Of a stretch of DNA of 64,000 bases, positions 11,424 to 56,582 are shown one piece after another. Under the pieces are notes generated by a model. That model had not been told where the DNA came from. It saw only the letters and a program-made list of their open reading frames with translations, and searched no databases. This DNA comes from a virus (lineage: Duplodnaviria > Heunggongvirae > Uroviricota > Caudoviricetes), in IMG/VR virus record IMGVR_UViG_3300042894_006602. One strand, written 5' to 3'. Numbering within the stretch: the first letter of the stretch is position 1; each line of letters starts with the position of its first letter. The translations under genes and the position numbers were made by a program.

Positions 11424-11459
11424 CTTTATTTATAAGGCTTTCCGAAGATTACCTTTTTG

Positions 11460-11543
11460 TAGTCGAGGCGGGAGTCGAACCCGCACGGGCAAATGCCCAC
11501 AGGATTTTAAGTCCGGCGTGTCTACCTATTCCACCACTCGACC
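11460..11543 (-). tRNA. tRNA-Leu(UAA)
   Basis: Minus strand reads GGTCGAG..CTTAAAA..TGGGCATTTGCCCGT (long variable arm)..GCGGGTTCGACTCCCGC..CTCGACT-A. T-arm and acceptor pair cleanly. There is one C-U mismatch in the anticodon stem. Confidence 0.65.
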
Positions 11544-20720: not shown

Positions 20721-21503
20721 ATGAGAGTTTGTAAAGAATGTAAATTAGAAAAACAGTTAGTTGATTTTCCATTGAAGAAGAACGGTAAAGTTAAAAGTTC
20801 TTTATGTAAAGAATGTTACAATGACTTTTATTACCATCAAAATAAAGAAAAGGTTGTTGAATATAAAAAAAATTATTATGAAGAGAATAAAGACAAAATA
20901 AAAGAGAAAAATAAAGAAACCTATCACCTCAACAAAGATGAGATAAATAAAAGAAGAAGAAAAAATTATGAAGAAAACAAAGAATCCTTTAAAGAAAAAA
21001 GAGATGAATACTTTAACAATAATAAAGAAAAAATAAATGAGAGAAGAAGGTCATATCACAGTAAAAATAAAGATATTATAAATAATAGAAGAAAAGAGAA
21101 AAATAGAAAATACGCTTTAGAATATTATTATGCAAATAAAGAAAGACAAAATAAAAGATCAGTTGAAAGAAGAATTGAAAAATTAAAAACTGATCCTTTC
21201 TATAAATTAATACATAATATTAGATGTTTAGTCAGAAAGTCCTTACAAAATCAATTCACAACTAAATCCAAAAAAACAATAGAAATACTGGGTTGTTCCT
21301 TTGAAGAATTCAAACTTCATTTAGAATCTCAGTTTGATGATAAAATGAATTGGGAAAATCAGGGAACTTATTGGCATATGGATCATATAATACCTATATC
21401 GTCTGCTAAAACAGAGGAAGATGTTTATAGGTTAAATCACTATACAAATTTTCAACCTCTTTATTGGGAAGATAATTTGAAAAAAAGTAATAAAATAATA
21501 TGA
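20721..21503 (+). CDS. HNH endonuclease with N-terminal CxxC zinc finger and basic repeat region
   Basis: CKECK..CKECY. Four basic repeats of the form NKxxINxRRRxxY. C-terminal WHMDHIIPIS...N matches HNH. Confidence 0.5.
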   Translation: MRVCKECKLEKQLVDFPLKKNGKVKSSLCKECYNDFYYHQNKEKVVEYKKNYYEENKDKIKEKNKETYHLNKDEINKRRRKNYEENKESFKEKRDEYFNNNKEKINERRRSYHSKNKDIINNRRKEKNRKYALEYYYANKERQNKRSVERRIEKLKTDPFYKLIHNIRCLVRKSLQNQFTTKSKKTIEILGCSFEEFKLHLESQFDDKMNWENQGTYWHMDHIIPISSAKTEEDVYRLNHYTNFQPLYWEDNLKKSNKII

Positions 21504-22648
21504 GTGAATATAAAGTTGAAGATTTAGGTCAGGTTTTTACACCAATTGATATAGTCAATAAAATGACATCAATGATTAAAAACGGCATGAGAATTTTAGA
21601 ACCTTCTTGTGGTGATGGTGCATTTTTAGAGGTTTTGGAAAATTTATATAAAAATGTAATTGGTATTGAGTTTGATGGTCATCATTGTCCTCCAAATGCA
21701 CTTAACATGGATTTTTTTGATTATTCTGTAGATGAAAAGTTTGATACAATTATAGGAAATCCACCATACGTTAGTGGAAAAAAAATAATTAAAGAAACAA
21801 TCGACAAAATTAGTAGCAAATTAATAACTCATGGTAAATCAAATCTTTATCTTTATTTTATAGAAAAATGTATCAATCATTTAACAGAAAACGGTGAAAT
21901 TATATTCATAACACCAAGAGAATTTATAAAAAACACATCATCTTGTAAATTAAATAATTTCCTATATGAAAAAGGAACTATAACACATTGGTATGAATTT
22001 GGTGATGAGGTCATATTTAAAGGTTACTCACCATCAGTTGTTATTTTTAGATTTGAAAAAAATAACTTTTCTAGAAAAACAATAACTAATGATGGTGAAA
22101 AGAATTTCATAAATTCAAATGGTCAATTATTATTTTTAGATAAGGAATTAAAAGGAAAAAAACTTGGTGATTTATTTTTAGTGAAAGTTGGTGGTGTGAG
22201 TGGAATGGACCAAATATTTGCTGAAGAAAGTGGTAATGAAGATTTTGTTTGTTCATATACAGCCCAAACAGGTAGTTTAAAAAAATTTCACTACAATATA
22301 TTAAATGACTATATGATTTCTAAAAAAGATTTAGTCATAAAAAGAAAAATTAAGAAATTCGATGAAACTAACTGGTGGACGTGGGGTAGAGACTTTTATA
22401 AATCAGATAGAAGAAGAATATATGTAAATGCAAAAACGAGAAATCCCAACCCATTTTTTATAAATGAGTGTAGAAATTATGATGGTTCTATTTTGGCTTT
22501 AATACCAAAAAATGATGAGATAGAATCAAATATTGATAATTATTTGATTAAATTAAATAAAATTGATTGGAACTCGTTAGGATTTAAAGTCGGTGGTAGA
22601 TATATGTTCACTCAGAAAACACTTGAAAACATAATTTTAGATATCTAA
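21500..22648 (+). CDS. N6-adenine DNA methyltransferase (gamma class, Eco57I/TaqI-like)
   Basis: VFTPIDIV, the AdoMet site ILEPSCGDGAFL, and the catalytic IIGNPPY. Start overlaps the HNH gene stop by 4 nt. Confidence 0.75.
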   Translation: MSEYKVEDLGQVFTPIDIVNKMTSMIKNGMRILEPSCGDGAFLEVLENLYKNVIGIEFDGHHCPPNALNMDFFDYSVDEKFDTIIGNPPYVSGKKIIKETIDKISSKLITHGKSNLYLYFIEKCINHLTENGEIIFITPREFIKNTSSCKLNNFLYEKGTITHWYEFGDEVIFKGYSPSVVIFRFEKNNFSRKTITNDGEKNFINSNGQLLFLDKELKGKKLGDLFLVKVGGVSGMDQIFAEESGNEDFVCSYTAQTGSLKKFHYNILNDYMISKKDLVIKRKIKKFDETNWWTWGRDFYKSDRRRIYVNAKTRNPNPFFINECRNYDGSILALIPKNDEIESNIDNYLIKLNKIDWNSLGFKVGGRYMFTQKTLENIILDI

Positions 22649-25572: not shown

Positions 25573-25624
25573 AAAATACTTTCATATCACAAATATAATT
25601 AAATTATTTCTTATTCAATTTTTT

Positions 25625-26800
25625 TTAAGATAACTTTGGAATATCATTCCAATCAGTTGTCCATTTTGGTGAAAGAAATTCTCTTCTTGTCATCCACATT
25701 TGACTTGATACCGTTGGTCTTTTTACTAATGGATAATCTTCTTGAAACAAAGTTTTAATATTGACATTTTCATCAATCAAGTCTAAAAAGATAACACCGG
25801 CTTTTGCCCAAAGTTTCATAGGTAGTTCTTCAAAATGTGGTGAAACTTCATTCCAAATTGATTGAACATCATTACTTGGAGTATAAAGTTTAATCTTTCT
25901 CGACCAAACAAAATAACCTTCTTCAAATCTATTAGTTGTACAAAATAAAACTATAGTTCTTCCTTTAATAGATTCTGATTTCATTTTACTACAAGCATCT
26001 TCAATAAATGTCCAGATAGCATCACTAACTTGTTCTTTTTGCCAAACAGTTCTTCCAAAACTTCTAGAAGAAGTAACAACTTTTGGTTTCTTAAACTTAG
26101 TTTCAATCTTATGGATTAACTCACCGTGTAGTTCAGACCAAGTTCTAAGACCAACAATAGTAAACATTTTTCTAACTTGATAAGCTTGAAGTTCTTTGAA
26201 TTGACCAATCTTGTCAACACCAATACTGTTGAGTTTCTTTCTCCATTTATTTCCAATTCCCCAAACTTCACTAATTTCAATATCGTCTATATCAGGTGAA
26301 TCAAAATAGGAACAAACACCTTTTTCCATCTTTTTTGCTTGATGGTTCATTAACTTTGCAATAGTTTTATTTGGAGCAACTCCAATTGAAACTGGAATTC
26401 CAGTAAGTCTTAAAACTTCAGAACGAATAAGGGTCATATAATTTATTAACTCACTATCATCAATATGAGTTAAGTCCATAAATGATTCATCAATTGAATA
26501 TATCTCAAGTTGTGTGGTAAATCTTTTAAGAATGTTTGATATTCTATCAGAAATGTCTCCGTAAAGTACATAGTTAGATGAGAACTTTACCATTTTTTCT
26601 TTAATCTCATCATCTAACTTAAAGACCGGTTGTCCCATTTTAACACCCATATCTTTAATCTCTTGACTTCTAGCAATAACACATCCGTCATTATTAGAAA
26701 GTACAACCGTTGGTGTAGATTTTAATTTAGGATTAAATAATCTTTCACACGAAACGTAAAAGTTATTACAATCGACTATTGCTATTTTTTTATTTGACAT
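25625..26800 (-). CDS. umuC: Y-family DNA polymerase (UmuC/DinB-like)
   Basis: Start taken at the internal Met (MSNKKIAIVDCNNFYVSCERLFNP). This matches the UmuC/DinB N-terminus, as does SLDE and the palm/finger layout. Confidence 0.8.
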   Translation of the reverse strand: MSNKKIAIVDCNNFYVSCERLFNPKLKSTPTVVLSNNDGCVIARSQEIKDMGVKMGQPVFKLDDEIKEKMVKFSSNYVLYGDISDRISNILKRFTTQLEIYSIDESFMDLTHIDDSELINYMTLIRSEVLRLTGIPVSIGVAPNKTIAKLMNHQAKKMEKGVCSYFDSPDIDDIEISEVWGIGNKWRKKLNSIGVDKIGQFKELQAYQVRKMFTIVGLRTWSELHGELIHKIETKFKKPKVVTSSRSFGRTVWQKEQVSDAIWTFIEDACSKMKSESIKGRTIVLFCTTNRFEEGYFVWSRKIKLYTPSNDVQSIWNEVSPHFEELPMKLWAKAGVIFLDLIDENVNIKTLFQEDYPLVKRPTVSSQMWMTRREFLSPKWTTDWNDIPKLS

Positions 26801-27102
26801 AATTTCCAAGTTATAGTTCCCCAAAGTTTTTCAGGGTCAATGTTTTTATATAAGTCTAGTGTTAATTTTTCATTACCATTTACAATTACTAAATCCTCTG
26901 GTTCAGGAGTTGACGCTCTATCAACAACAAGATAATCACCCCATTTTAGGTCAAACTTTTCTTCACCTTCCCATTGAAAAAAGAAAGTAGAATACGGGTC
27001 GTTAATTAGTAAATCATTAGGGTCTAATCGTTTTCCAACATAGGCTCTAGCAGGTGAGCCAAACCCAGTGGTTTTGGTATTAATTGTGAAATTATCTTGC
27101 AT
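26782..27102 (-). CDS. umuD: UmuD'-like S24 peptidase-fold protein, N-terminally pre-truncated, catalytic Ser absent
   Basis: Aligns with the E. coli UmuD C-terminal domain (FPSPA..LL..P..TF vs GFGSPARAY..LLINDPYSTFF). GDSM is replaced by GEEK. At 106 aa it is about the size of the processed UmuD'. Overlaps umuC by 19 nt. Confidence 0.6.
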   Translation of the reverse strand: MQDNFTINTKTTGFGSPARAYVGKRLDPNDLLINDPYSTFFFQWEGEEKFDLKWGDYLVVDRASTPEPEDLVIVNGNEKLTLDLYKNIDPEKLWGTITWKLCQIKK

Positions 27103-27115
27103 AATTATAGTATTG

Positions 27116-27131
27116 CACCAAATATACGGAA
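27116..27131 (-). promoter_or_regulatory. Bacteroidetes-type -7 promoter box (TATATTTG) upstream of umuD'
   Basis: The minus strand reads ttccgTATATTTGgtg about 20 nt upstream of the start. The same CACCAAATAT / ATACGGAA halves flank the 104-bp repeats. Confidence 0.45.
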
Positions 27132-27368
27132 TTTATTTTAATTAAAAAAATTATTAGTAGTTTTTCGCAATCTCTGGTTCTTTATTTATTTGTCAATTTC
27201 TAAACTTTTAATCTTCGTTTTGATTGACCAACAATTACATTTTCTTTCAAGCCTAACATATTAAATTTTATTTTTGTTTTTTAGATTATTTTTTTAAAAA
27301 TATTAATATATACATTAATTAAATTAACAATATTAAGTTTTAGGTTGGTAAAAAAATAATAACCGACA

Positions 27369-28478
27369 ATGAGAAATCTACCAAAAGAAGAGTTATTAAG
27401 CAGACTCGAAGCAATTAACAGAAGTAATGCTATTATCTACTTTGATCTTGCAGGTACTATATTAGGAGTTAATGACATTTTTTTGGAGGCAATGGGTTAT
27501 GGTAAAGGTAATCATGATGATATCATTGGTAAACATCATAGCATTTTTGTATGTGATGATTATGCAAGAACACTTGAGTATGAGAAGTTTTGGGACATCT
27601 TAAGAAGTGGTAAGTACTATACTGGAGAATTTGAAAGAAGAAGAAAGGATGGAAGTCTTATTAATCTTCAAGCAACTTATAATCCTATCTTTGATGAGGA
27701 TGGTAAGATTACTAAGATAATGAAAATTGCGACTGACATTAGTGCAATTGTCGATAGTAAAAAACAGATAGATGCAATTAACAGAAGCACAGCTCTTATT
27801 AGTTTCAACATCGATGGATTTATAACAGATGTGAATTCTATATTTTTAGAAACTATGGGTTATAAAGCTAATGAAAAAGATAAAGTCATTGGTAAGCATC
27901 ATAGTGTTTTTGTTAGTTATGAATATTCTAAATCTGATGAGTATATTAAGTTTTGGGATAGTTTAAGAAAGGGTAAATTCTTTGATGGAATATTTGAAAG
28001 AAGAAAAGTAGATGGTTCTACTGTTTACTTACAAGCATCTTATAATCCTGTAATGGATAGTAAAGGAAATATCACTGACGTAGTTAAAATCGCAACTGAT
28101 GTTACTGAGTCTGTAATCAATAAGAAAAAAATAGATGAACTCACAAAGAATTTACAAATAGAGTTAGATAATTCCGAAAAACTTAAAAACTCAATAGAAT
28201 TAGAAAAAGATGCAGCCCTAAATGACTTAGATGTAATGATGAAAAAAAGTCAAAGTGAGCTAATAAAAATAATTGTTAAGGTTGCTTTAGCTGTTATAGT
28301 TGGAGTAGGAGTCGTAACAACAGTTTTATACTGGGCGGCTATTATAACAGGACAAGACACACAAATAATAGGATCAACTTGGAGTAACATGTTTAGTGTG
28401 TTGTTAACAAATGCCTTTTCAATAGTTGGTACAATTATGGGTATAAAGTATGCTACTCAAGATAGTAACAAAAAATAG
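27369..28478 (+). CDS. tandem PAS-domain protein with coiled coil and C-terminal TM helices
   Basis: Two repeats of about 115 aa (..NRSNAIIYFDLAGTILGVNDIFLEAMGY.. and ..NRSTALISFNIDGFITDVNSIFLETMGY..) typical of the PAS fold. Hydrophobic C-terminus. Confidence 0.6.
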   Translation: MRNLPKEELLSRLEAINRSNAIIYFDLAGTILGVNDIFLEAMGYGKGNHDDIIGKHHSIFVCDDYARTLEYEKFWDILRSGKYYTGEFERRRKDGSLINLQATYNPIFDEDGKITKIMKIATDISAIVDSKKQIDAINRSTALISFNIDGFITDVNSIFLETMGYKANEKDKVIGKHHSVFVSYEYSKSDEYIKFWDSLRKGKFFDGIFERRKVDGSTVYLQASYNPVMDSKGNITDVVKIATDVTESVINKKKIDELTKNLQIELDNSEKLKNSIELEKDAALNDLDVMMKKSQSELIKIIVKVALAVIVGVGVVTTVLYWAAIITGQDTQIIGSTWSNMFSVLLTNAFSIVGTIMGIKYATQDSNKK

Positions 28479-29345: not shown

Positions 29346-29636
29346 ATGTATGAACCATTCGTAGGAGAAATATGTCAGTATCCTTATAATTTCGCACCAA
29401 AAAACTGGGCACCATGTCACGGTCAAATCATGCCTATACAACAAAACACTGCTTTGTTTTCACTATTAGGAACTACTTTCGGTGGTGATGGTAGAACCAC
29501 ATTTGCCTTACCAGATTTAAGACCAAAAGATGAAAACGGAAATGTTATTCAACTTAGATTTGGAGATATTTATGAAGGTAAACCTTATATGGATTACTAT
29601 ATTGCATTAAACGGAATTTATCCTTCAAGAAGCTAA
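29346..29636 (+). CDS. phage tail-collar domain protein (MdpB-like), paralog 1
   Basis: G.I..YPYNFAP..W..CHGQ..PI..N.ALFSLLGTTFGGDG.TTFALPDLRP matches the phage tail collar domain consensus. Confidence 0.75.
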   Translation: MYEPFVGEICQYPYNFAPKNWAPCHGQIMPIQQNTALFSLLGTTFGGDGRTTFALPDLRPKDENGNVIQLRFGDIYEGKPYMDYYIALNGIYPSRS

Positions 29637-29652
29637 AAAATAAAATTTAATT

Positions 29653-29943
29653 ATGGACGAAGTATTTATTGGGGAGTTAGCTCAATTTCCTTACAATTTT
29701 TGCCCCGCAGGTTGGGCTTACTGTCACGGACAGTTATTATCTATCGCTGAGAATGATGTATTATACACATTATTGGGAACCACTTATGGTGGCGATGGTG
29801 TTCAAACATTTGGCTTACCGGATTTAAGACCAAAAGATGAAATGGGAAATGTCATCCAACTCAGAGTTGGTGAGGTACACAATGGTAAAGTTTTTATAGA
29901 AACTTATATAGCATTAGAGGGTATTTATCCACCAATGTCTTAA
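29653..29943 (+). CDS. phage tail-collar domain protein, paralog 2
   Basis: About 55% identical to paralog 1 with the same conserved motifs. Confidence 0.75.
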   Translation: MDEVFIGELAQFPYNFCPAGWAYCHGQLLSIAENDVLYTLLGTTYGGDGVQTFGLPDLRPKDEMGNVIQLRVGEVHNGKVFIETYIALEGIYPPMS

Positions 29944-35370: not shown

Positions 35371-36252
35371 ATGGCAAAAGACACTTATTTAGATCCACTC
35401 TACAAATGGACTGGTGGTAAAAGAAAAGAAATCAAAACATTTAGTAAATACTATCCAGAGTTTATTACTAACGGAGAAGAATATACTTTTGTTGAACCGT
35501 TTTTTGGAGGTGGTGCTGTTTACTGGTCACTTAACGCAAAAAATAATGTTATCAATGATATTGATGAAGAGTTAGTAAATTTCATTAGACAAGCAAAATC
35601 AAATCCAGAGGCAATCAGATTGGCAGTTAAACAAGTTGGAGATAAAATTAAAGCAGTCAGTGAAAGAGAAAAAGCAAAAGAACTTACAATCGCTGAGGCA
35701 AAAACACTTAGAGGCGAAAACTACTATGAGTGGAGAAATAAAGACCGTAAAGATGGTTTAACTTGGATGTCTGAATTAGATAGAGCCAGTCGTTTTTATA
35801 TCGTTAATCAATTAGCGTTTAATGGTATGAGACGTTTTAACTCCAGAGGTGAATTTAATATTCCATACGGTAATTATAAGTCATTAAATATTGACCTGTC
35901 TGAAAAACACGTTGAACTTTTACAAAGAACTGAAGTACTTTGTGGAAGTTACAAAGATGTTATGTTGGCAAATGATAAACCAAACACATTCATTTATTTA
36001 GATCCACCATATACCAGAGAGTTCAATGAGTATTCACATGAAAATGTATTTGGTACAAAACAACAAATTGAATTAGCCGATACATTTAAATCTATGAAAG
36101 AGGCTAAAGTTATGATTATCATTAACAAAGATGATTTCACAACTGAACTTTACAAAGACTACATCAAATTGACTTATGATTTAAAGTATTCAACTAATAT
36201 CAAAAACAGATATGACAATTCAGTTCAACATATTGTCGTTACAAATTATTAA
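35371..36252 (+). CDS. dam: Dam-family N6-adenine DNA methyltransferase
   Basis: YKWTGGKRK (KWAGGK), FVEPFFGGGAVY, FNGMRRFNSRGEFNIPYG and FIYLDPPY align with E. coli and T4 Dam. Confidence 0.85.
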   Translation: MAKDTYLDPLYKWTGGKRKEIKTFSKYYPEFITNGEEYTFVEPFFGGGAVYWSLNAKNNVINDIDEELVNFIRQAKSNPEAIRLAVKQVGDKIKAVSEREKAKELTIAEAKTLRGENYYEWRNKDRKDGLTWMSELDRASRFYIVNQLAFNGMRRFNSRGEFNIPYGNYKSLNIDLSEKHVELLQRTEVLCGSYKDVMLANDKPNTFIYLDPPYTREFNEYSHENVFGTKQQIELADTFKSMKEAKVMIIINKDDFTTELYKDYIKLTYDLKYSTNIKNRYDNSVQHIVVTNY

Positions 36253-39635: not shown

Positions 39636-40463
39636 ATGAAAATCATTTTATTTATAGCCACATTAAGTTTACTTTTAGGTTGTGCAAAGTCAAATTTACC
39701 CGAATCTGATTCCGATGTTAGTTTAAATAATATCAATAATATAGATTCATTGAAGAGTAATCAGAAGATTTTAGATACTATGGTAATCCAAGAGGAACTT
39801 ATAGTTGTACAAGAGCTAAAAAGAATACCGATGGATGAAAACAAAAGTACTGTGGATGAAGTAAAGATAATTGAGAAACACGAAAAGAAAACTCAATTAA
39901 AAGTTGTTGATAGAACTTCTAAAAATTCCGATGTAAATAAAGGTTGGATTGCTTATTCAGTTCCAGAAGAAATGAAAGTTGAAAAGAGTTTTTCAGTTAA
40001 AGTTAGAATATCTAAGAAAAGCGGTCAATCAAAAGCTGAATTGATTTTAGGCAATGATGATGCTATAAACAATCCAGACTATCCATCAATTGCTATGATT
40101 GAAGATGTTAAAGTGTCTGGTGAGATGTCTGCTGAATTGAGAGGTGATTTAGATGCTTTCAAAATCGTGTGTCTTTCTACACCAACACAAAATATAGATG
40201 ATGAAAGTTATACTGAGTGGGATTGGATTGTAACACCTAAAAAAGGTGGTCAAAATCATTTAAAATTGGTTGTTAAGTTAAAAGACTTAAATAAAGATAT
40301 CATAGTTTTTAATAGAAACATAAATGTAAAGTCTAATGTGCCGGTTGTTGTCAAAGGTTTTTTTGAAAAATACTGGCAATGGCTTATGACAACTATAATT
40401 ATTCCAGTATTTATATACTTCTGGAATAAGAAGAAGAAAAAGAGACAAACAAAAAAGAGTTAG
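39636..40463 (+). CDS. lipoprotein with C-terminal TM anchor and poly-Lys tail
   Basis: Signal peptide with an LLGCAKS lipobox, a C-terminal TM helix and KKKKRQTKKS. Confidence 0.5.
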   Translation: MKIILFIATLSLLLGCAKSNLPESDSDVSLNNINNIDSLKSNQKILDTMVIQEELIVVQELKRIPMDENKSTVDEVKIIEKHEKKTQLKVVDRTSKNSDVNKGWIAYSVPEEMKVEKSFSVKVRISKKSGQSKAELILGNDDAINNPDYPSIAMIEDVKVSGEMSAELRGDLDAFKIVCLSTPTQNIDDESYTEWDWIVTPKKGGQNHLKLVVKLKDLNKDIIVFNRNINVKSNVPVVVKGFFEKYWQWLMTTIIIPVFIYFWNKKKKKRQTKKS

Positions 40464-40486
40464 AAAAATCTAACTCTTTTTTTTTA
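40452..40486. terminator. bidirectional terminator (AGAGTTAGAAAAATCTAACTCT + T9)
   Basis: Hairpin overlapping the stop codon of the 39636-40463 gene, between convergent genes. Confidence 0.65.
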
Positions 40487-40753
40487 ATACTCTTCATCGT
40501 AATCATCATAACCAAAGTCATCATAATCATCATCTTCTTCATCCCTATCTAAATAAGGAAAAACATCATTCTCATCAAAAAGTTCAATCAATTCTTCAAT
40601 TTCTACTTCTTCTAAATCCAAGTCTTCAATTTTGAAAACCTCACCATCCAATTCGAATTTAATTTTTAATTCTTTCTGTAGTTGCTTTAATCTTTTTAAT
40701 ACTGCTTTTCTATCAATTGCTTCGTCTAAACTGTAATAATTGTGGAGTTCCAT
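40484..40753 (-). CDS. small highly acidic protein (C-terminal DDDYDDFGYDDYDEEY)
   Basis: 89 aa with a strongly acidic C-terminal third. Confidence 0.45.
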   Translation of the reverse strand: MELHNYYSLDEAIDRKAVLKRLKQLQKELKIKFELDGEVFKIEDLDLEEVEIEELIELFDENDVFPYLDRDEEDDDYDDFGYDDYDEEY

Positions 40754-40761
40754 ATTTTATT

Positions 40762-41505
40762 CTATTTTTTATTTAATTTTTTTGCTATTTCGGTTTCTGA
40801 TAATCTTGGTAATTCCTCAGTGATTGGATATTTAGTTAAGATAGCAAATTTTTCACCATCATCCATATAAGTAACATCTAAATAGTATCCAGCACACTTA
40901 ATCTTCATTCTGGTATCAGAAATCTCAACTGGAATTATCTCAGAAGTTTGTGGTAAATCGAATGATTTAATATTTCTGATAAATCCCCAGTTGTCATTCT
41001 TATAAAATTCTGCCTTCAAAAGTTGTAAAAAACTTGAATCTTTTTTTAATAACTCATTTTTTCTAATACCATGAACATCTTTAAATTTGAAGCCAAGTGT
41101 TATGTGAAAGTCAAAAGGTTTTAATCCGAATCTGTTTCTTATAGCGTTTAATTTTTCAGATTTACAAACTATAAAATAACATCTATTTTCATTCTGAAAT
41201 GCGGTTCCGATACCTAACATTTTCAAATCATCAATCTCATAATGAAATATTGGTTCGAGTGAATTAATGAATTTGTCAATACCCAAATCTTTTGAAAGTT
41301 GATTGTAATCCATTACATTAATAACGGTTAGATGATATTTGCCACCATCACGTTGCTTTTGTAAATCAGTGAATATTTTGAAATCATCTTCGCCAATAAT
41401 AGACTCCAATTCATTCAAATAAGGCTCAACAATGTCATGTGGTATATCTAAACCCAAATAATTGTTAGCCACGCGGTCTTTTAAATAAGAAACATAATAA
41501 ATCAT
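40762..41505 (-). CDS. 2H phosphoesterase superfamily protein (LigT/CPDase-like)
   Basis: Two H-x-T-x motifs (GKYHLTVIN and FDFHITLGF) at the spacing typical of 2',3'-cyclic phosphodiesterase / 2'-5' RNA ligase folds. Confidence 0.6.
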   Translation of the reverse strand: MIYYVSYLKDRVANNYLGLDIPHDIVEPYLNELESIIGEDDFKIFTDLQKQRDGGKYHLTVINVMDYNQLSKDLGIDKFINSLEPIFHYEIDDLKMLGIGTAFQNENRCYFIVCKSEKLNAIRNRFGLKPFDFHITLGFKFKDVHGIRKNELLKKDSSFLQLLKAEFYKNDNWGFIRNIKSFDLPQTSEIIPVEISDTRMKIKCAGYYLDVTYMDDGEKFAILTKYPITEELPRLSETEIAKKLNKK

Positions 41506-41524
41506 AAGTGTATATATTCAGAAA

Positions 41525-42697
41525 TTATAAAAGATTTTTGAAATTTTCTATTTCTCTCTTTTTAATTTCAATTCCTAAATCTCTACCCTTAAAACCCTGA
41601 GACATAAGCTCTTCAGCCGATGTGATTGGTTTATACTCAACGAATTTAATTTTGACATTATCATTAATGCCCAATGCTTTATACCATTCAATTATAGTAT
41701 TATCATCAATGTGACACTGAAGTTTAGATTTATACATATCAAAAGCCAACTCAGGAGTTAATTGTAATAATCTAATTAAGAAAACCACTTTTGTTGATAC
41801 TTCTGATTCTATTTTATAATCTTGAACCAATTTCTTTTCTAATCCATCCGTACTTTCATTCTTAAATAGATTAGCAATAACTACAACAAAATCTTTACTA
41901 TCAACTAATTCAGTATTGATATCAGAATCCGGAAATACTTCAGACCACATATCAAACTTAGTAAAGAAGTTCAAATAGTTTCTATAATCTTTTGCTTGTT
42001 TCCAAGCTTTCTTCATTTCTTCCCAGACTCTTTCTTGAGAAATTCTTTTCATTTCACCAGTTTCAGGTTCTATATTTTCTAATTGTTTTCTTTTTTCAAT
42101 TGCCTTCTCAGTGTCTACATGAAGTGGATGTCCATATCTCGAAGCAAAACGAAATGCTCTTAAAATTCTTAAACTATCTTCGTCAAACCTTTCTATAGGA
42201 TCACCAACCATTTGAGTTATACCTTTTTCTAAGTGCTCACGACCTCCAGTCAAATCAACAATCTCTTTATTATCTAAGTCATAGAAAAGTGCGTTATAAG
42301 TCAAATCTCTTCTTTTAACATCATCTTCAATAGTAACTCCTAATTTAACTTCAGGGTTTCTTCCTTTACTAACATCTTCTCTGAATGTAGCAATTTCCAT
42401 TCCCTCTGGTTGATCATCGGTGAATACAACTACAACTCCAAATGCTTTACCCTGTAAGTTAGTCTTATAATCTTTTCCGATGATTTCTAATACCTCATCT
42501 GGGAGAGCGTCAGTTGCTAAGTCAAAGTCTTTTGGTTTATCTCCAGTGAGGAAGTCTCTAACGGCACCTCCGACGACATACAATTTTTTTCCTTTTGATT
42601 TGAAAAGTAATTGCAATTCTTTAACCGATTGTGGAATTATATTCCACATATCTGAACTTTGTGATTCTAAAAACTGTTGATATTTTTTAATTTTCAT
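41525..42697 (-). CDS. cca: tRNA nucleotidyltransferase (CCA-adding enzyme / poly(A) polymerase head-domain family), N-tagged (MKIKKYQQFLES)
   Basis: LYVVGGAVRDFLTG..PKDFDLAT (the GG..RD..DxD nucleotidyltransferase core), RDLTYNALFYD and DPIERFDEDSLRILRAFRFASRYG match class II CCA enzymes. Confidence 0.8.
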   Translation of the reverse strand: MKIKKYQQFLESQSSDMWNIIPQSVKELQLLFKSKGKKLYVVGGAVRDFLTGDKPKDFDLATDALPDEVLEIIGKDYKTNLQGKAFGVVVVFTDDQPEGMEIATFREDVSKGRNPEVKLGVTIEDDVKRRDLTYNALFYDLDNKEIVDLTGGREHLEKGITQMVGDPIERFDEDSLRILRAFRFASRYGHPLHVDTEKAIEKRKQLENIEPETGEMKRISQERVWEEMKKAWKQAKDYRNYLNFFTKFDMWSEVFPDSDINTELVDSKDFVVVIANLFKNESTDGLEKKLVQDYKIESEVSTKVVFLIRLLQLTPELAFDMYKSKLQCHIDDNTIIEWYKALGINDNVKIKFVEYKPITSAEELMSQGFKGRDLGIEIKKREIENFKNLL

Positions 42698-42713
42698 TTT
42701 GTAAATATAATAA

Positions 42714-44009
42714 TTAATCTCTATATAATGAATTTAATCTCACCACTCTAAGTTTATCAATAAAATCTTCCAACTCTGACAATTCAACTGGTCTTTCTTC
42801 ATGTTCACACCAAGTTTCGATTATATCTTCTTTAAAGTCTTTACCATTTGGTTGTATATAATCAATGTCACCTTCAAAAAGATCAACTAATAAATTTCTA
42901 AACTTAATAGCTTCTCTTCTGTTTGAGAAATAAACTTCACTAAACTCAGATCCTTCAATCGATACAACTCCTGTAGACACCATAGGTAGTTTTACACCAT
43001 CTTCATCTTTGCAGTTTTGATTGGTCAGATTGATATAAACATCTTGTAACCAAATTATACCATTATTTGAGTTTGTATAACCTCTGATATCACCACCAAC
43101 ATACCAATCTAAAACTTCTAAATCTTCTTCTGAAACTGGATGAACTCCAAACATAAACTGTGGCCAAAGTGAATTTCTATCAAGATCTAACCATTCTGGT
43201 AGCATCTCACTTAGGTAATAGTCAGAATTAAAATACAATTGTATATAACAATTTGCGAATTTAATTTCACTTCCCAGACCCATAACGGTACCACCACCCT
43301 TAACAAATCTTAGTTGAAATTGACCTAATTTTTTTGCTTCTTCTAAAGCCATCTTGTGTTTAGCATCCTTTTCTCTTTGTCTAACAACCTCTGCCCAAGC
43401 TCTTAGTTGTTCAGGTCTTTTAATATGACCTAAACTTTTTAATTTATCAGCCGCACTTATGTATGTTCTTGGATCAAGATCTTCATTTGTTGAAAGGTGT
43501 CCTCTCGTTCTATCTACAAAAATTTTTTCCTTAGTGAATGAAATCTCAAATGTCCATTTATTAACTCTATCAAAAGTCGTTGGATCATATACTGGTGAGT
43601 TTATAATTTGAGGTCTTCTTTGGTATTCTTTTTCAATAGACTTGACACCAAATGTTTCAGGATCTGTTGTCCAATGATAACCTTTAATTTTCTGGTTAAT
43701 TGTGAATCCATCTTCTGATTCTTCAAAGTTTTCATCTTCTACACAAGTAAAGTGTTCTATTTCAAATCCCTCTCCACTTAAATAAGACCAAATAGATTCA
43801 ATTGGTATTTTTATATCACTATATGTGAATTCTTTATTCCTACTCACAGAAACTTTAACTCTTTCTTTTTGTGAATGATAATCTATCTCAGAAACATTAG
43901 TTTGAAACTCATCATCCCTTAATTCAATAAGCAAGTCTTCAACTGTTGATTTCAATTCTGATTTCAATCTAACACCGACAGCTTCTTCATATCTTTTTAA
44001 ATACTTCAT
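42714..44009 (-). CDS. paralog family member A (431 aa; N-tag MKYLKRYEEA, C-term SLYRD)
   Basis: Part of a 4-gene tandem array with overlapping stop/start codons. Confidence 0.55.
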   Translation of the reverse strand: MKYLKRYEEAVGVRLKSELKSTVEDLLIELRDDEFQTNVSEIDYHSQKERVKVSVSRNKEFTYSDIKIPIESIWSYLSGEGFEIEHFTCVEDENFEESEDGFTINQKIKGYHWTTDPETFGVKSIEKEYQRRPQIINSPVYDPTTFDRVNKWTFEISFTKEKIFVDRTRGHLSTNEDLDPRTYISAADKLKSLGHIKRPEQLRAWAEVVRQREKDAKHKMALEEAKKLGQFQLRFVKGGGTVMGLGSEIKFANCYIQLYFNSDYYLSEMLPEWLDLDRNSLWPQFMFGVHPVSEEDLEVLDWYVGGDIRGYTNSNNGIIWLQDVYINLTNQNCKDEDGVKLPMVSTGVVSIEGSEFSEVYFSNRREAIKFRNLLVDLFEGDIDYIQPNGKDFKEDIIETWCEHEERPVELSELEDFIDKLRVVRLNSLYRD

Positions 44010-44012
44010 CTT

Positions 44013-44870
44013 TTAATCTCTATATAAACCATTTACTGACATTCTCTTAGCAGCATCAACAGCTCCTTTATAAGTATCTTCACCAAAAGGATTTTTTGGC
44101 CAGGTATCTGGATCTGTTAAATCATATTCATCCTCTCTACCATTTAAGTAATGGTCCATCAGTTTTTTTCTCCACCCCTCTTCATCTAAACTAAGTGTTG
44201 ATTTTAATTGTTCTGCAATTGTTCTTTCACCATAAGTACCCCAATTTGATTTTCCTTCTAATGTATTAGATAACAAGTTTTTAAATTTCATAGCATCTGA
44301 TCTATAGTTAAAGTGGAAAGTAAATCCATCTCTATCTTCAAATCCACCAAGTCCACATGTATAAGAAGGAACTCCGCCTTTACCAAAAAGAGTAAGCCAC
44401 AATCTATTAGTCCAGTATCTATAGTCACCCCACATAGAGTTATTTCTAAAATACTCAATGTCTTTATTTTCGCTTGTTTCAAGCATTTTAAGCGTTTCAT
44501 CATCAGCTGGTATAATGGCAAATTCCATAGCAATTCCCATTGACCAATCCATACCTTCGTCTAACCAATCATGTAACTGGTCTTTAAACCAATCAGATTC
44601 TAAACACATTTGTAGATAAAATTTACCAGAAAATATATCTTTCTTATTTGATCCATAACCTCTTGCCACTGTAATATCAAATAAACCAAACTCTTTATTT
44701 TCACTTTGAGCTTGTAATAACTTTTGAGATTTCTCTTTTAATTCAACTTGAGTTGCATAATCTAATAATTCCGCACCTCTTCTTTTGTGACCCATCTGAG
44801 TGAATTTTTCACCTGCTTTTTTGTAAGTAGATGCTTTTAACTCTTCATTAAATCTTTTTAAATATCTCAT
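44013..44870 (-). CDS. paralog family member B (285 aa; N-tag MRYLKRFNEEL, C-term NGLYRD)
   Basis: The N-terminal 40 aa are alignable with members C and D (..TY..AG.K....GH..R...L). Confidence 0.55.
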   Translation of the reverse strand: MRYLKRFNEELKASTYKKAGEKFTQMGHKRRGAELLDYATQVELKEKSQKLLQAQSENKEFGLFDITVARGYGSNKKDIFSGKFYLQMCLESDWFKDQLHDWLDEGMDWSMGIAMEFAIIPADDETLKMLETSENKDIEYFRNNSMWGDYRYWTNRLWLTLFGKGGVPSYTCGLGGFEDRDGFTFHFNYRSDAMKFKNLLSNTLEGKSNWGTYGERTIAEQLKSTLSLDEEGWRKKLMDHYLNGREDEYDLTDPDTWPKNPFGEDTYKGAVDAAKRMSVNGLYRD

Positions 44871-45592
44871 AGTGTTGAAGAAAGTAAATTTGGACTAATT
44901 GTTCTCATGTATTCAGCAGCATCTTCTAATTTAAATCCATAATCAGAAGAGAATGAATTCTCAGCTAAGATACAATTTGTTAATTTTTCATATAAGTCAT
45001 CAGCATCCGTATAACCAGAAGGATACCCTAATTGCGGATTACTAAATATTTGAATAAGTAAATTTTTGAACTTGTTAGCGGACCCTCTATCAGCAAAATT
45101 GATTTTACCATTCATATCTTCATCATAGTCCCACATATTCCACTTAGTAAATCTAACAGTATCTCCTAATTCATATTCTAAATTAAAGATTTTACCCCAG
45201 AAAAATCCATTTCCAAAGTCATAGTCTGGACAAAGTTCCATATACTGATAGATTAAATCTTCAGATGTTGGAATTAAACCTATAAAAAAAGTAATACCAC
45301 TTTCTGGTTCATCACCAAATGCCAAATCATCAAAGTTAACATCTAAATGAAAATCACCAGTTAATGTACTTCCGGTCTCTGGATTTTTTATAGTCATCTT
45401 AAATGTTCCGAATTGAGCATAATCTTGAATTCGGTCTTGCCACTTAATCATCTCTTCTTTTTTCTCAGTTTCTTTAGCCCAGTCTTTTAAAGCATTTGCT
45501 CTATCATGATGACCTAATTTATCAAGTTTTCTAGCAGCAGACATATAAGTCTGTGGTCTTAATTCTTCGTTAAACTTTTTTAAATACTTCAT
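44867..45592 (-). CDS. paralog family member C (241 aa; N-tag MKYLKKFNEEL)
   Basis: 4-nt overlaps (ATGA) with both neighbours. Confidence 0.55.
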   Translation of the reverse strand: MKYLKKFNEELRPQTYMSAARKLDKLGHHDRANALKDWAKETEKKEEMIKWQDRIQDYAQFGTFKMTIKNPETGSTLTGDFHLDVNFDDLAFGDEPESGITFFIGLIPTSEDLIYQYMELCPDYDFGNGFFWGKIFNLEYELGDTVRFTKWNMWDYDEDMNGKINFADRGSANKFKNLLIQIFSNPQLGYPSGYTDADDLYEKLTNCILAENSFSSDYGFKLEDAAEYMRTISPNLLSSTL

Positions 45593-46491
45593 AAACTTAT
45601 TTCTTTTTCATACCATCTACTACGAATCCAATCACCAGATCCACCACGAGTTGGTAAATCATCATCATAAAGACCTTGAATTTTTATTTTTGTAAAAGCA
45701 TCAACAGCTTTTTCTATGTTTTCTGATTTACCACCAACAATTCTTAAAACATTCATAATAGCATCTTTGATATCATCTAAGTGATTAGTGATAAGCCAGT
45801 TTTTAAATTTAACTGCTGATTTTCTGTCACTGAAAATACCATATTGATTATCATTAGGAGATTTTATGATTACATTATAACATGCAGACCAATTATAAAA
45901 TTCCGTCAAAGTAGTTGGAGTAAATTCTTCACCATCGCGAAGAAGTCCATTTTCAGCATCCCATCTAGCATCAGCATCCCAATCATTTAAACCACTATAC
46001 CATTCACTTAAGTCTATTTGTAAGTTAAAGGCTTTTACTTCTTTAGCAGTAGGATTATTAGCATTCCAACAAAAATTTGAGCTTCTATTACTTTTTTCTA
46101 TAGTTTCTCTTGTAGCCTTAAAGGAAAACTCAAAACTTATATTAAGTCCATCTTGACCCAATTTCCACCTTTCAACTAAATCTTCTGCTAACATTTCTGG
46201 ATCTTTTCCATATGACATTCCATTAAATCCTTTAAATTCATCTTTGTATTTTGTTGGAGTTGAAGCATAATAAATACCCGTCAATCTAGGTTGAGTAAAT
46301 GATGATTCTTTTGCTATAAAGACTGGATTATTATTTGCCCATGTCATATTATAAAAACCAAACTCTCTTTCATCAGCAAAATCATGTAGTAAAGAAGCTT
46401 GACTAGTCTTATTATAATAATCTAATTTACTACCAGCACTTCTGTAAGTCTTAGGATTTAACTCTTCGTTGAATTTCTTGATAAACTTCAT
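45589..46491 (-). CDS. paralog family member D (300 aa; N-tag MKFIKKFNEEL, C-terminal IQGLYDDD)
   Basis: Same N-terminal architecture as members A-C. Confidence 0.55.
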   Translation of the reverse strand: MKFIKKFNEELNPKTYRSAGSKLDYYNKTSQASLLHDFADEREFGFYNMTWANNNPVFIAKESSFTQPRLTGIYYASTPTKYKDEFKGFNGMSYGKDPEMLAEDLVERWKLGQDGLNISFEFSFKATRETIEKSNRSSNFCWNANNPTAKEVKAFNLQIDLSEWYSGLNDWDADARWDAENGLLRDGEEFTPTTLTEFYNWSACYNVIIKSPNDNQYGIFSDRKSAVKFKNWLITNHLDDIKDAIMNVLRIVGGKSENIEKAVDAFTKIKIQGLYDDDLPTRGGSGDWIRSRWYEKEISL

Positions 46492-46526
46492 ACGTTTTTA
46501 TATATTAAGTTTTTAATATATAAATT

Positions 46527-46781
46527 ATGAAATGGATAAAATTATTTGAGGATTTCAAACAAAATAATGAAGAAGGAACTCTTATTACAATTGATGATAT
46601 TATAAAATGTATTAAGAAAAGAGGAGTTATTTATGCGACGATTGTTAAAGAATATCCAGATAATAACCCAAAAGATCCAATCACTCCTGTTGATATAGAT
46701 GAAGATGGTTTAATAACAGTTGATATTGATGGAAAAGAATATCAAATTGACCTAGATGATGTTGAGAAAATAGAATACTAA
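46527..46781 (+). CDS. small N-tagged protein (MKWIKLFEDF)
   Basis: 84-aa ORF with the shared N-terminal motif. Confidence 0.4.
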   Translation: MKWIKLFEDFKQNNEEGTLITIDDIIKCIKKRGVIYATIVKEYPDNNPKDPITPVDIDEDGLITVDIDGKEYQIDLDDVEKIEY

Positions 46782-47275
46782 TCAATTAAGTTTCTTAATT
46801 TTATATCTCTTAATATAGGTTTCGTTTTTTCATTTACTAAATGAGTTATTTCATTTTCGCTTCTATAATTCATACCAGTTAAATCATAAGTGCTGTATTG
46901 ATAACCACCCAATATATCTTTCATTATTTGAAGGTGTGTTTCTTCAGTTCTCCAGAAATTTTTTAGCGGAAAAGGTATCCACATATCAATGTTATTAGAT
47001 TGACAGTAACCAATTAGGTCTTTAAATTTATAGGTGTCTTCTTTATAGATATCAACATGAAATAACATTAGATTTTTACCATCAAGTTTTTCTAAATCGA
47101 TTTTATCAGGATGATTACATCCAAATTTAGTCCAGATATAAGGTTCCGATACTTGGTGTCTATAAAGTAACATACATTCTGGAAGACTATAGAATATTTG
47201 ATAACAAGCTCGAGCGGCTACATTCCAAGCGAGCTTGTATTCAATACTCATATCCATTTCTAAAACATTAATCAT
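46778..47275 (-). CDS. hypothetical protein (165 aa)
   Basis: ORF overlapping the next gene by 8 nt. Confidence 0.45.
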   Translation of the reverse strand: MINVLEMDMSIEYKLAWNVAARACYQIFYSLPECMLLYRHQVSEPYIWTKFGCNHPDKIDLEKLDGKNLMLFHVDIYKEDTYKFKDLIGYCQSNNIDMWIPFPLKNFWRTEETHLQIMKDILGGYQYSTYDLTGMNYRSENEITHLVNEKTKPILRDIKLRNLID

Positions 47276-47834
47276 TTAAGAACTTAATAATTTTTTCTTT
47301 TATCCCAGATTGTTTAATACCAATATATTGTTTAGTCATAACAAAATTGGATAATCCACCATTTGAATTACCAGAAACCGGTCCAAACTTTTCACCTAAA
47401 TCCATATCATCAACAGCAACCCAATTAGTAACTTCTGGATGTTGGTCTAACCAAGTTTTAATTTCCTTAATTCTCCACTCCTCTAACTCACTTTGTGTGA
47501 ATTGGGATTTAGACTGATAACTTACTAAATTAGGAGTAACATCAATTGGTGATTTGATAACATCATATTTATCAAACATATCTTGAAGTTCTTCAAGTGT
47601 AGCAAACAACTTCCAATCTGAACTAACAACAATCTCAACATCATAATGTAACAAAATCGAATTGAGAGTTTTAGTTGCTTTAAAATCAAAGTTGTCTAAC
47701 TTAATCCAAGCCGGCATATCATCTTCAGATGAACCAGGAAATTCTTTTTTAAACTTAATCATTTTTTTAGCACGACCACCCCACTGCTCAGCGAGACACA
47801 TCACACCATCGAAATCTAAAAATATTACTTTCAT
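47268..47834 (-). CDS. HAD-like hydrolase
   Basis: N-terminal MKVIFLDFDGVM (DxDGV motif I) and VVSSDW. Confidence 0.5.
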   Translation of the reverse strand: MKVIFLDFDGVMCLAEQWGGRAKKMIKFKKEFPGSSEDDMPAWIKLDNFDFKATKTLNSILLHYDVEIVVSSDWKLFATLEELQDMFDKYDVIKSPIDVTPNLVSYQSKSQFTQSELEEWRIKEIKTWLDQHPEVTNWVAVDDMDLGEKFGPVSGNSNGGLSNFVMTKQYIGIKQSGIKEKIIKFLND

Positions 47835-47863
47835 ATTTTATATATTTAATCAAATATAGTTAA

Positions 47864-48694: not shown

Positions 48695-48727
48695 ACTTAT
48701 ATGATATAGGATTTTTATATATAGTTT

Positions 48728-50979: not shown

Positions 50980-51004
50980 ATGACTATATATTAAATAATT
51001 TTGC

Positions 51005-56578: not shown

Positions 56579-56582
56579 ACCA

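Follow-up and report, generated by a model that had tools for sequence, protein, structure and literature searches.

DNA polymerase V (Pol V) is the textbook mutagenic polymerase, and it is placed under layered control by RecA: UmuD is cleaved on RecA*, and UmuC then gains a RecA-ATP subunit. In a model of Pol V, the arm of UmuD' inserts into the cleft between the palm and little-finger domains of UmuC, and UmuC's C-terminal tail binds UmuD' (PMC11791011). UmuC additionally carries a RecA-NT-like motif (defined in PMC6511836), which corresponds to the N-terminal ~30 residues of DUF4113 and to about residues 365-395 of E. coli UmuC. According to a survey of bacterial Y-family polymerases, RecA-NT is wholly absent only from DinP, DinX and two PolIV-like groups (PMC12926913). 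Pre-truncated UmuD' proteins are already known, the precedent being HumD of phage P1, which complements UmuD' (PMC7092418 and the family annotation).

The locus considered here lies in a stretch of viral DNA of 64,000 nucleotides, hereafter the window. The original prediction, made from the sequence alone, described a umuD'C-like pair in a mobile element, in which UmuD is born pre-processed, has lost its catalytic serine and would activate its partner polymerase independently of RecA. The elements of the locus are as follows.

25579..27155, minus strand: block forming a self-contained cassette, with the promoter-proximal region, the mini-umuD and umuC genes and a short stretch of 3' flank
27119..27126, minus strand: TATATTTG, a match to TAnnTTTG ending 16 nt before the mini-umuD ATG, read from the sequence
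26782..27102, minus strand: mini-UmuD gene, 106 aa with an ATG start, a non-peptidase homologue of UmuD/UmuD'
26782..26800, minus strand: 19-nt overlap between the end of mini-umuD, with its stop codon, and the start of umuC (ATG at 26800)
25625..26800, minus strand: gene for a UmuC-type Y-family DNA polymerase, 391 aa from the ATG

The two predicted reading frames, a 106-aa UmuD homolog and a Y-family polymerase, are both present on the minus strand, and their predicted 19-nt overlap holds with the umuC ATG at 26800 (an alternative TTG start at 26824 would extend UmuC to 399 aa). The overlap suggests translational coupling of mini-umuD and umuC. The genes also overlap or abut in relatives (by 19 nt in L008, 8 nt in L078 and 1 nt in L010), and the mini-UmuD gene lies directly upstream of umuC in L001-L010, L078 and L083. 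A longer upstream start, supplying an arm with a cleavage site, had been named as evidence that would speak against the prediction. Such a start is ruled out by an in-frame stop 11 codons 5' of the ATG; none of the codons between is ATG, GTG or TTG.

The promoter box, predicted about 20 nt upstream, is indeed there at 16 nt from the ATG, and it agrees with TAnnTTTG, the -7 promoter box consensus of Bacteroidota/Flavobacterium (PMC7641319). It is kept at a similar short spacing in L001, L004, L006, L007 and L008, while the sequence further upstream diverges. Within the window, 13 of the 73 ORFs have such a box in the 80 nt upstream, where roughly 5 would be expected. The box may act as the cassette promoter. 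A sigma-70 reading of the promoter was dropped in favor of the Bacteroidota -7 box, as the scan for sigma-70 promoters returned fewer sites than in shuffled sequence; the same scan found no intrinsic terminator.

The homology of mini-UmuD to UmuD is far beyond chance. The protein matches the NCBIfam UmuD subfamily PRK10276 with an E-value of 5.7e-15 and UmuD in the PDB (8gmt_B) with an E-value of 1.4e-8 (phmmer). The best PDB fold matches of its AF2 core model are the UmuD' structures 1ay9, 1umu and 8gmt (TM about 0.58, Foldseek). Its only Pfam hit is S24 (PF00717), at 16.5 bits and thus below the gathering cut-off of 23.3; YolD gave no match at E <= 1. Against the HumD family NF051876 it scores 30.9 bits, the curated cut-off being 120. 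The mini-UmuD family comprises 60 clusters at 90% identity. Alignments place an internal deletion of about 20 aa relative to UmuD 100-125, and the C-terminal strand LWGTITWKL is conserved in the family. The positions that matter most for the interpretation are listed below.

27067..27102, minus strand: MQDNFTINTKTT, the conserved leader of 12 residues, whose last, Thr12, aligns with UmuD Cys24
27040..27066, minus strand: arm motif GFGSPARAY, the equivalent of UmuD' GFPSPAADY
26956..26967, minus strand: GEEK (residues 46-49) in place of GDSM (58-61), from the pairwise HMMER alignment to UmuD
26854..26856, minus strand: Asp83, which alignments match with the general base Lys97

The predicted loss of the serine nucleophile through replacement of GDSM by GEEK is borne out by the alignment to UmuD. 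The Ser60 column is occupied by Glu48 in the window protein and by E17, S11, N3, D2, T2, Q1 and A1 (residue and number of members) across 37 family members, and the Lys97 column by D24, E10, A2 and S1. The scissile Cys24-Gly25 column reads Thr12-Gly13, and Thr-Gly is invariant in the family. The alignment with the S24 family that had been proposed as a check thus finds both the Ser-Lys dyad and the Ala/Cys-Gly site absent, in the window protein and in 37 of 37 members. A catalytic Ser conserved at a shifted position, which would have counted against the prediction, is ruled out together with a shifted Lys: none occurs among the 37 aligned sequences, where the sole conserved Ser is that of the arm motif and the sole conserved Lys is the C-terminal residue. 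Since the dyad and the cleavable bond are both lost, mini-UmuD should be unable to cleave itself and should be made in its final form.

What the final form looks like is less simple than the prediction had it. Arm residues G13, F14, S16, P17, A18 and Y21 are invariant even with E. coli UmuD included in the alignment. The leader, disordered in the AF2 monomer, varies between 10 and 14 residues across the family and follows the pattern hxhxTxTTG, with I7, T9, T11 and T12 invariant in the 37 members. The description 'born pre-processed' therefore stands insofar as the protein is non-cleavable and has no upstream extension. It fails insofar as the 12-residue leader precedes the equivalent of Gly25, so that mini-UmuD does not have a free N-terminus at or near that residue. 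Its UmuD'-like length, remarked on in the prediction, is a coincidence of the leader and the internal ~20-aa deletion.

The activity of a leader-bearing mini-UmuD is not to be assumed, because uncleaved E. coli UmuD retaining 17 or 7 leader residues shows strongly reduced or low mutagenesis (PMC5342242). Mini-UmuD might accordingly behave like uncleaved UmuD and hold UmuC in a non-mutagenic state, checkpoint-like or accurate; it would bind UmuC, and perhaps parts of the host replisome, and modulate replication rather than support constitutive bypass. The strict conservation of the four leader residues would fit such a brake, as would the observation that the little-mutagenic, non-cleaved partial-arm UmuDs of E. 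coli still affect RecA-dependent recombination (PMC5342242). We nevertheless consider it unlikely: the leader has no counterpart of residues 1-12 of the UmuD arm, and in dyad-less homologues from bacteria the Gly is preceded by no more than 2-4 residues, making the class as a whole UmuD'-like. Presumably neither the TFPLF clamp-binding motif nor the ClpXP signal region has a counterpart in the leader. Moreover, the active site is invariant in 119 UmuC sequences, which argues that synthesis is the selected activity.

The leader could, on the other hand, be removed by another protein. Thr-Gly occupies precisely the scissile position, hxhxTxTTG has a strand-like pattern resembling the cleavage-site strand of LexA and UmuD, and intermolecular cleavage of UmuD is possible. 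Control in trans would then be restored if a host S24 or phage protease clipped Thr12-Gly13, or if the complex were engaged, elsewhere than at RecA-NT, by RecA or a recombinase of the phage, although we give this little credence. A second S24 protein acting from within the window is ruled out, no other S24-like ORF being present in the 64 kb, and we know of no LexA-family site with Thr at P1. A further argument comes from the partner protein, whose relevant positions are these.

26756..26776, minus strand: VDCNNFY, with catalytic Asp10 and the steric-gate pair Phe14-Tyr15, aligning with E. coli UmuC D6, F10 and Y11
26483..26497, minus strand: SIDES, with catalytic Asp104 and Glu105, aligning with UmuC D101 and E102
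25745..25756, minus strand: KTLF, aligned with the clamp motif (QLNLF) of E. coli UmuC
[quoted passage not shown]
25628..25696, minus strand: WMTRREFLSPKWTTDWNDIPKLS, a conserved C-terminal tail that corresponds to the one by which UmuC binds UmuD'

The polymerase matches Pfam IMS (1.2e-36) and IMS_C (7.7e-12), and its best NCBIfam match is UmuC PRK03609 (1.6e-79); its 267.8 bits fall below the cut-off of 431 for the NF002955 subfamily. The AF2 model has a mean pLDDT of 87.5. Residues D10, F14, Y15, D104 and E105 are invariant in 119 of 119 UmuC sequences. KTLF is a putative beta-clamp binding site; relatives vary at this position (KLF, TVF, SLI, SLF).

The C-terminal part of the protein combines a deletion with a conserved tail. 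At the RecA-NT position there are 5-6 residues instead of 28 in all 117 close full-length homologues, and the core of the motif is likewise deleted in UmuC of L008, L009, L010 and L078. The Pfam match to DUF4113 covers only profile positions 28-50 of 51 (E 3e-6), and the AF2 model contains no helix-strand element beyond the little finger. The tail that follows shares W369, L376, S377, T381 and T382 with E. coli UmuC, in the pattern W..(R/K)...LS..(W/Y)TT, and the clade shows no variation at W369, T371, T381, T382, W384 and P388. Its pLDDT of about 45-50 is expected of a partner-dependent tail.

Judged from sequence, neither of the features linking Pol V to RecA is present in the phage pair. 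They have been lost together in the phage clade only, which speaks against cleavage or activation in trans; the simplest explanation of the joint loss would be the loss of RecA dependence itself. The RecA independence proposed originally on the basis of mini-UmuD thereby gains separate support, because the partner UmuC lacks the RecA-NT docking motif. At the same time, the activity of a UmuC devoid of RecA-NT is not self-evident, because the UmuD'2C of E. coli shows almost no activity in the absence of RecA-ATP (PMC12926913). RecA could still bind through other surfaces.

Taken together, these data lead us to favor, with moderate confidence, the reading of the cassette as a phage-borne, Pol V-like two-subunit translesion polymerase that is uncoupled from RecA. 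Mini-UmuD would be a UmuD descendant in which self-cleavage is gone but the SH3-like beta core remains, as do the C-terminal strand and the GF.SPA..Y arm. UmuC would keep its active site and UmuD'-binding tail, with the helix-strand RecA-NT motif for docking one RecA monomer deleted. Transcription of both genes would start from the Bacteroidota-type -7 promoter, their translation would be coupled, and their products would assemble directly. Such assembly is supported indirectly by the conservation of the C-terminal strand, the arm and the UmuC tail. The complex would allow the replication of a huge phage to proceed across a damaged template, for example one with UV lesions, and this bypass would be independent of both the host SOS signal and RecA* filaments. 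The pair thus probably works without the host DNA-damage alarm; polymerase activity without RecA is presumed, as are its biological role and the constitutive mutagenic bypass originally proposed. A stronger version, which we put forward only tentatively and regard as the lesser chance, is a minimised Pol V of huge Bacteroidota phages that is wholly RecA-free, self-sufficient and clamp-assisted, with the Thr-rich leader replacing the contribution of RecA.

The genomic context agrees with the mobile-element setting of the original prediction. The window derives from a phage related to the 'Mahaphage' genomes of 634-642 kb, for which Bacteroidetes are the predicted hosts: a neighboring gene has 75-77% aa identity to these huge phages (LR745206, LR756502). 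The viral assignment rests on this similarity and on IMG/VR membership; PHROGs and Pfam searches identified no capsid or terminase gene in the 64-kb window, and most large neighboring ORFs are without a match. The possibility that the window represents bacterial chromosomal DNA was rejected. Three DNA methyltransferase genes are also encoded in the window. Relatives of the cassette occur on IMG/VR contigs of up to 165 kb and on contigs of up to 522 kb. The cassette block is 97.5% identical to that of L001/L002, where the flanks are non-homologous or rearranged, and in the 522-kb contig L083 its position in the backbone differs from that in the window.

The cassette is under purifying selection. 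Compared with L001, mini-umuD has no nonsynonymous changes at a pS of 0.12, and compared with L006 its dN/dS is about 0.12, which marks it as a genuine gene. In L004, umuC is truncated (254 aa), and the cassette is therefore dispensable in some genomes. This truncation, the lost catalytic residues of the peptidase and the internal deletions in both proteins are what might be expected of a decaying, functionless remnant of a captured bacterial umuDC operon. Such decay is already disfavored and in our view very improbable, given the strength of purifying selection, the 60 mini-UmuD clusters, the 117 full-length UmuC homologues with invariant active sites and the conservation of both operon architecture and promoter box.

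Alternatively, the polymerase might have a purpose other than damage tolerance and serve to copy modified phage DNA, to fill gaps in recombination-dependent replication or to raise the mutation rate against host defences. The methyltransferases and the location of the cassette in a variable accessory region are compatible with such a purpose, and umuDC-like operons flank anti-defence islands of plasmids (PMC11541004). We assign it a low probability, since in both L083 and L084 the gene directly after the cassette is a UvrC-like repair gene, in keeping with a DNA-damage theme, and no targeting element is seen. To our knowledge, UmuC-family enzymes are also lesion-bypass polymerases wherever they have been tested.

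The close mini-UmuD family seems to be absent from cellular reference genomes: a protein scan and a family-alignment scan, both pattern-limited, found no relatives in 185,579 species-representative genomes. A degenerate DNA pattern for TTGFPSPA matched 63 loci in IMG/VR, of which only L038 and L044 are real mini-UmuDs; almost all the others are false positives in unrelated ORFs. More broadly, our census suggests that non-proteolytic mini-UmuDs are common in bacteria and viruses. Many of them are likely annotated as autoproteolytic subunits or as LexA, source annotations including 'DNA polymerase V' and 'SOS-response transcriptional repressor LexA'. Our literature search returned nothing relevant on dyad-less UmuD or on UmuC in huge or jumbo phages.

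The clade can be regarded as a natural experiment, in which the sequence basis of both RecA steps is gone and the catalytic site, arm and tail are under purifying selection. The phage pair can show whether a UmuC-type enzyme works without RecA and which parts of UmuD serve purely as a polymerase subunit. If the wholly RecA-free reading is true, this would be the first UmuC-type polymerase free of both RecA checkpoints, and the part that RecA plays in Pol V Mut could be studied in a tractable system. The largest known phages would appear to bring their own damage-tolerance polymerase, which makes sense for a phage that has some 0.5 Mb of DNA or more to replicate and cannot count on the SOS system of its host.

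Compared with E. coli UmuDC, the phage pair shares the order of small subunit and polymerase, the overlapping genes, the UmuD fold, the GF.SPA..Y arm, the catalytic residues of UmuC and its C-terminal tail. In contrast to E. coli UmuD, which has Ser60/Lys97 and the Cys/Ala-Gly site, mini-UmuD is without both, and its leader is 12 aa long rather than 24. The phage pair is also without about 20 aa of the UmuD C-terminal domain and without the RecA-NT of UmuC, resides in a huge phage and has a Bacteroidota-type promoter box. P1 HumD and N15 gp26 (NF051876) are likewise phage-encoded UmuD' analogues without a cleavable arm, and gp26 also lacks the Ser (GATH in its sequence). However, HumD begins exactly at Met-Gly-Phe-Pro-Ser-Pro-Ala, has Asp-Ser and Ile-Lys where the dyad lies, and retains a full-length C-terminal domain with an extension (129 aa). 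It is, moreover, a solo gene that relies on host UmuC, with a LexA site in P1. The putative B. subtilis mutasomes YqjW-YqjX and UvrX-YolD also pair a non-proteolytic, SH3-like armed subunit with a Y-family polymerase (PMC6511836, PMC12926913), but YqjX and YolD belong to a sequence family separate from mini-UmuD, and YqjW and UvrX keep the RecA-NT motif. Short dyad-less UmuDs encoded in ordinary bacterial chromosomes (L081 and L087, beside asd-dapABD-lysC, and L085 in CP020921.1), a class for which we found no description in the literature, share with mini-UmuD a length of about 98-114 aa, Thr-Gly in place of Ala-Gly, the missing Ser/Lys dyad, the shortened C-terminal domain and the location directly upstream of umuC. 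They differ in having only 2-4 residues before the Gly, and their partner UmuCs, at 423-439 aa, differ in carrying the full RecA-NT motif.

The small gene and its polymerase partner form a coupled pair on the minus strand of the window:

26782-27102, minus strand: mini-umuD, 106 aa, ATG start
25625-26800, minus strand: umuC, 391 aa counted from the ATG
27119-27126, coding (minus) strand: octamer TATATTTG, ending 16 nt before the mini-umuD ATG

The 19-nt overlap of the two genes described in the original prediction holds with the ATG start of umuC; a TTG at 26824, upstream of that ATG, is an alternative start giving 399 aa. A longer upstream start of mini-umuD, and with it a longer N-terminal arm, is excluded, since an in-frame stop lies 11 codons before the ATG with no ATG, GTG or TTG in between. 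A TAnnTTTG -7 box (consensus from PMC7641319) occurs close upstream of the start in the related loci L001, L004, L006, L007 and L008 despite diverged upstream sequence, and is enriched about 2.7-fold upstream of window ORFs.

The 106-aa protein (mini-UmuD) is a genuine UmuD homologue. It matches solved UmuD structures (phmmer, E 1.4e-8) and the NCBIfam 'Pol V autoproteolytic subunit' model (E 5.7e-15, under the model's cut-off), while Pfam S24 gives 16.5 bits only, under the gathering threshold. In the AF2 model, built from 37 homologues, residues 31-103 make up a confident beta core (pLDDT about 80) and the N-terminal residues 1-30 are disordered; the closest folds in the PDB are those of the UmuD' structures 1ay9, 1umu and 8gmt. 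In the residue-level alignment, TG-FGSPARAY is in register with CG-FPSPAADY of UmuD, GEEK is aligned to GDSM, and Asp83 to Lys97. The originally predicted loss of the nucleophile Ser is borne out by this alignment, and among the 37 family members both the Ser column (E17, S11, N3, D2, T2, Q1, A1) and the Lys column (D24, E10, A2, S1) depart from the Ser60/Lys97 dyad of UmuD. Nor was a shifted catalytic Ser found in these 37 proteins: their sole conserved Ser is Ser16, within the arm motif GF.SPA..Y, and their sole conserved Lys is the C-terminal residue. Because the dyad columns are not kept and no other Ser or Lys is conserved outside the arm and the C-terminus, mini-UmuD is a non-peptidase homologue incapable of self-cleavage, as had been proposed.

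The description of the protein as 'born pre-processed' stands only in part. The UmuD'-like length and the non-cleavable character hold; however, a conserved 12-residue leader is retained and about 20 residues (UmuD 100-125) are missing, so that the length resembles that of UmuD' because leader and internal deletion cancel out. The leader, MQDNFTINTKTT, precedes Gly13, the counterpart of the Gly that forms the UmuD' N-terminus. Within the family it spans 10 to 14 residues, with I7, T9, T11 and T12 invariant. Uncleaved E. coli UmuD variants keeping 17 or 7 leader residues show greatly reduced or low mutagenesis (PMC5342242), which makes the leader a real caveat against the claim of constitutive activation. 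It may stand in for a contact with RecA, serve as a brake or be clipped off in trans; there is no second S24-like ORF in the window.

The 391-aa partner belongs to the UmuC type of Y-family polymerase (Pfam IMS, 1.2e-36, and IMS_C, 7.7e-12; top NCBIfam match UmuC, E 1.6e-79; AF2 mean pLDDT 87.5). All aligned sequences (119/119) keep catalytic Asp10, Asp104 and Glu105 along with the Phe14-Tyr15 pair. In UmuC, the first ~30 residues of DUF4113 make up a helix-strand motif resembling RecA-NT (hereafter RecA-NT), which has been proposed to mediate docking to RecA (Timinskas and Venclovas, PMC6511836), and UmuC residues 361-376 are crosslinked by RecA N113Bpa (PMC6511836). This motif is missing from the window UmuC, as several lines of evidence agree. 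The segment EQLMTVMDTLNAKEGRGTLYFAGQG of E. coli UmuC is absent in the alignment, the Pfam DUF4113 match covers profile positions 28-50 of 51 only (the tail half), no helix-strand element is seen after the little finger in the AF2 model, and the 117 closest full-length homologues (49-99% identical) all have 5-6 residues at this site versus 28 in E. coli. The aligned C-terminal tail WMTRREFLSPKWTTDW..P is shared by the window and E. coli UmuCs; it beta-pairs with UmuD' in the published Pol V model (PMC11791011). A 2026 survey of >3000 bacterial genomes found just four small Y-family groups completely without RecA-NT, all DinP-, DinX- or PolIV-like (PMC12926913).

The cassette thus combines a non-cleavable small subunit, its arm intact, with a polymerase that retains its catalytic residues and UmuD'-binding tail and lacks RecA-NT. 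We infer that the two would associate directly as a Pol V-like enzyme, which could copy past lesions in phage DNA with no need for RecA*-mediated cleavage or RecA docking. It would probably use the host clamp, as weakly suggested by KTLF, which occupies the position of QLNLF in the alignment.

The cassette is a movable accessory unit. L001 and L002 match block 25579-27155 at 97.5% identity, whereas their flanks differ. From window position 50430 to 39800, contig L083 (522 kb) is collinear with the window, and it then carries the cassette and a UvrC-like gene; the window cassette lies about 12 kb from the equivalent site and, unlike L083, the window has no UvrC-like gene. The cassette gene is under purifying selection (0 nonsynonymous changes and pS 0.12 against L001; dN/dS about 0.12 against L006). 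In L004 (692-1456) umuC is truncated to 254 aa, leaving the IMS domain only, and homology to the window stops at window position 26046. The UvrC-like gene (GIY-YIG, UvrC_M and UvrC RNaseH domains) comes immediately after the cassette in L083 (11193-12458) and the related contig L084 (1411-2676). Upstream of the window cassette, a divergent gene (27369-28478, plus strand) codes for a double-PAS protein and is internally duplicated (27398-27744 versus 27762-28107, DNA identity about 69%); the same position in L001 (7135-9935) holds a GAF-PAS histidine kinase and a response regulator. It is unusual for a phage to encode sensory proteins.

The window has a GC content of about 30%, and most of its ORFs match neither Pfam nor PHROG families. 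Viral contigs of 49-165 kb in IMG/VR carry close mini-UmuD relatives, and contigs up to 522 kb carry UmuC relatives. Neither protein has a close homologue in the 50,697 GenBank phage records: the UmuC matches all stay below 60% identity, and the eight mini-UmuD matches (30-44%) come from phages of enterobacteria and from phage contigs of human-gut metagenomes. The product of window gene 51044-52516 is 75-77% identical to proteins of LR745206 and LR756502, 'uncultured phage' genomes of 634 kb and 642 kb. Both are among the largest Mahaphage genomes, with predicted replication in Bacteroidetes (Al-Shayeb et al. 2020, PMC7162821). A Bacteroidetes host fits the -7 box, a CHU_C protein on the related contig L078, and the 647-aa phage-encoded protein at 1569-3512 (plus strand), which has a cohesin domain and a C-terminal type IX secretion (Por_Secre_tail) sorting signal. 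The window also encodes DNA methyltransferases of three families (Eco57I/N6_Mtase, D12 Dam-like and N6_N4) within 64 kb:

21500-22648, plus strand: DNA methyltransferase
35371-36252, plus strand: DNA methyltransferase
57600-58403, minus strand: DNA methyltransferase

Other minus-strand features are two tandem 96-aa paralogues with the phage tail-fibre Collar domain (about 29346-29943, DNA identity about 69-70%), the sole tRNA (tRNA-Leu, anticodon TAA, 11459-11543), and RNA-repair-like genes at 41525-42697 and 47268-47834 with PolyA_pol/CCA-adding head and HAD_SAK_2 domains. Together with 2H-SAK, found in L083 (7931-8398), these are 'Swiss Army Knife' RNA repair domains. GC skew is strongly negative (about -0.2) along the long minus-strand gene run at 40000-60000 and near 0 in the cassette region.

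The family profile was searched against 1.84 billion representative proteins. Of the 128 highest-ranking representatives with a length of <=210 aa, the dyad is absent in 73 (median length 112 aa) and kept in 55 (147 aa), proportions biased by a query profile that lacks the dyad itself; even so, the dyad-less class is large and diverse. The scissile position is typically Thr-Gly or Ser-Gly in dyad-less proteins versus Ala-Gly in canonical ones. Bacterial loci L081 and L087 adjoin asd-dapA-dapB-dapD-lysC, and a third lies on a complete chromosome:

L085 4001-5534: dyad-less umuD locus on the bacterial chromosome CP020921.1 (1.77 Mb)

Their UmuDs (98-114 aa, starting M-x-(x)-T-G-F-P-S-P-A and encoded before full-length umuC) have just 2-4 residues ahead of the Gly, and their UmuC partners keep RecA-NT. 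Encoded on ordinary bacterial chromosomes, these proteins make up a class of UmuD' that is naturally pre-processed and non-proteolytic, of which we found no published description. In contrast, the 202-kb virus-like contig L078 pairs a leader-bearing, dyad-less mini-UmuD with a UmuC without RecA-NT. Peptidase loss is therefore widespread, whereas RecA-NT loss and the conserved leader mark the phage clade, in a small sample of four lineages. The search also returned single polypeptides of 220-285 aa with two tandem UmuD-like domains (P0069, P0077, P0078, P0079, P0082, P0086, P0089, P0092), which look like covalent UmuD pseudo-dimers. Their arm and cleavage site ([AT]GFPSPA-like) are on the first copy only. 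GxSM is in the second copy but not the first in P0078, P0079 and P0086, in both in P0077 (GESM, GDSM), and in neither in P0069, P0089 and P0092.

We found no published description of a RecA-NT-less UmuC clade with dyad-less, leader-bearing mini-UmuD in huge phages, or of how broad the set of dyad-less mini-UmuDs is. Earlier work already covers pre-truncated UmuD' (HumD), umuDC carried by phages and plasmids, and non-proteolytic small subunits (YolD). The known pre-truncated analogues, P1 HumD and N15 gp26, both begin exactly Met-Gly-Phe-Pro-Ser-Pro-Ala, whereas mini-UmuD carries a leader. At the dyad positions HumD, unlike mini-UmuD, keeps Asp-Ser and Ile-Lys, and N15 gp26 carries Thr in place of the Ser.
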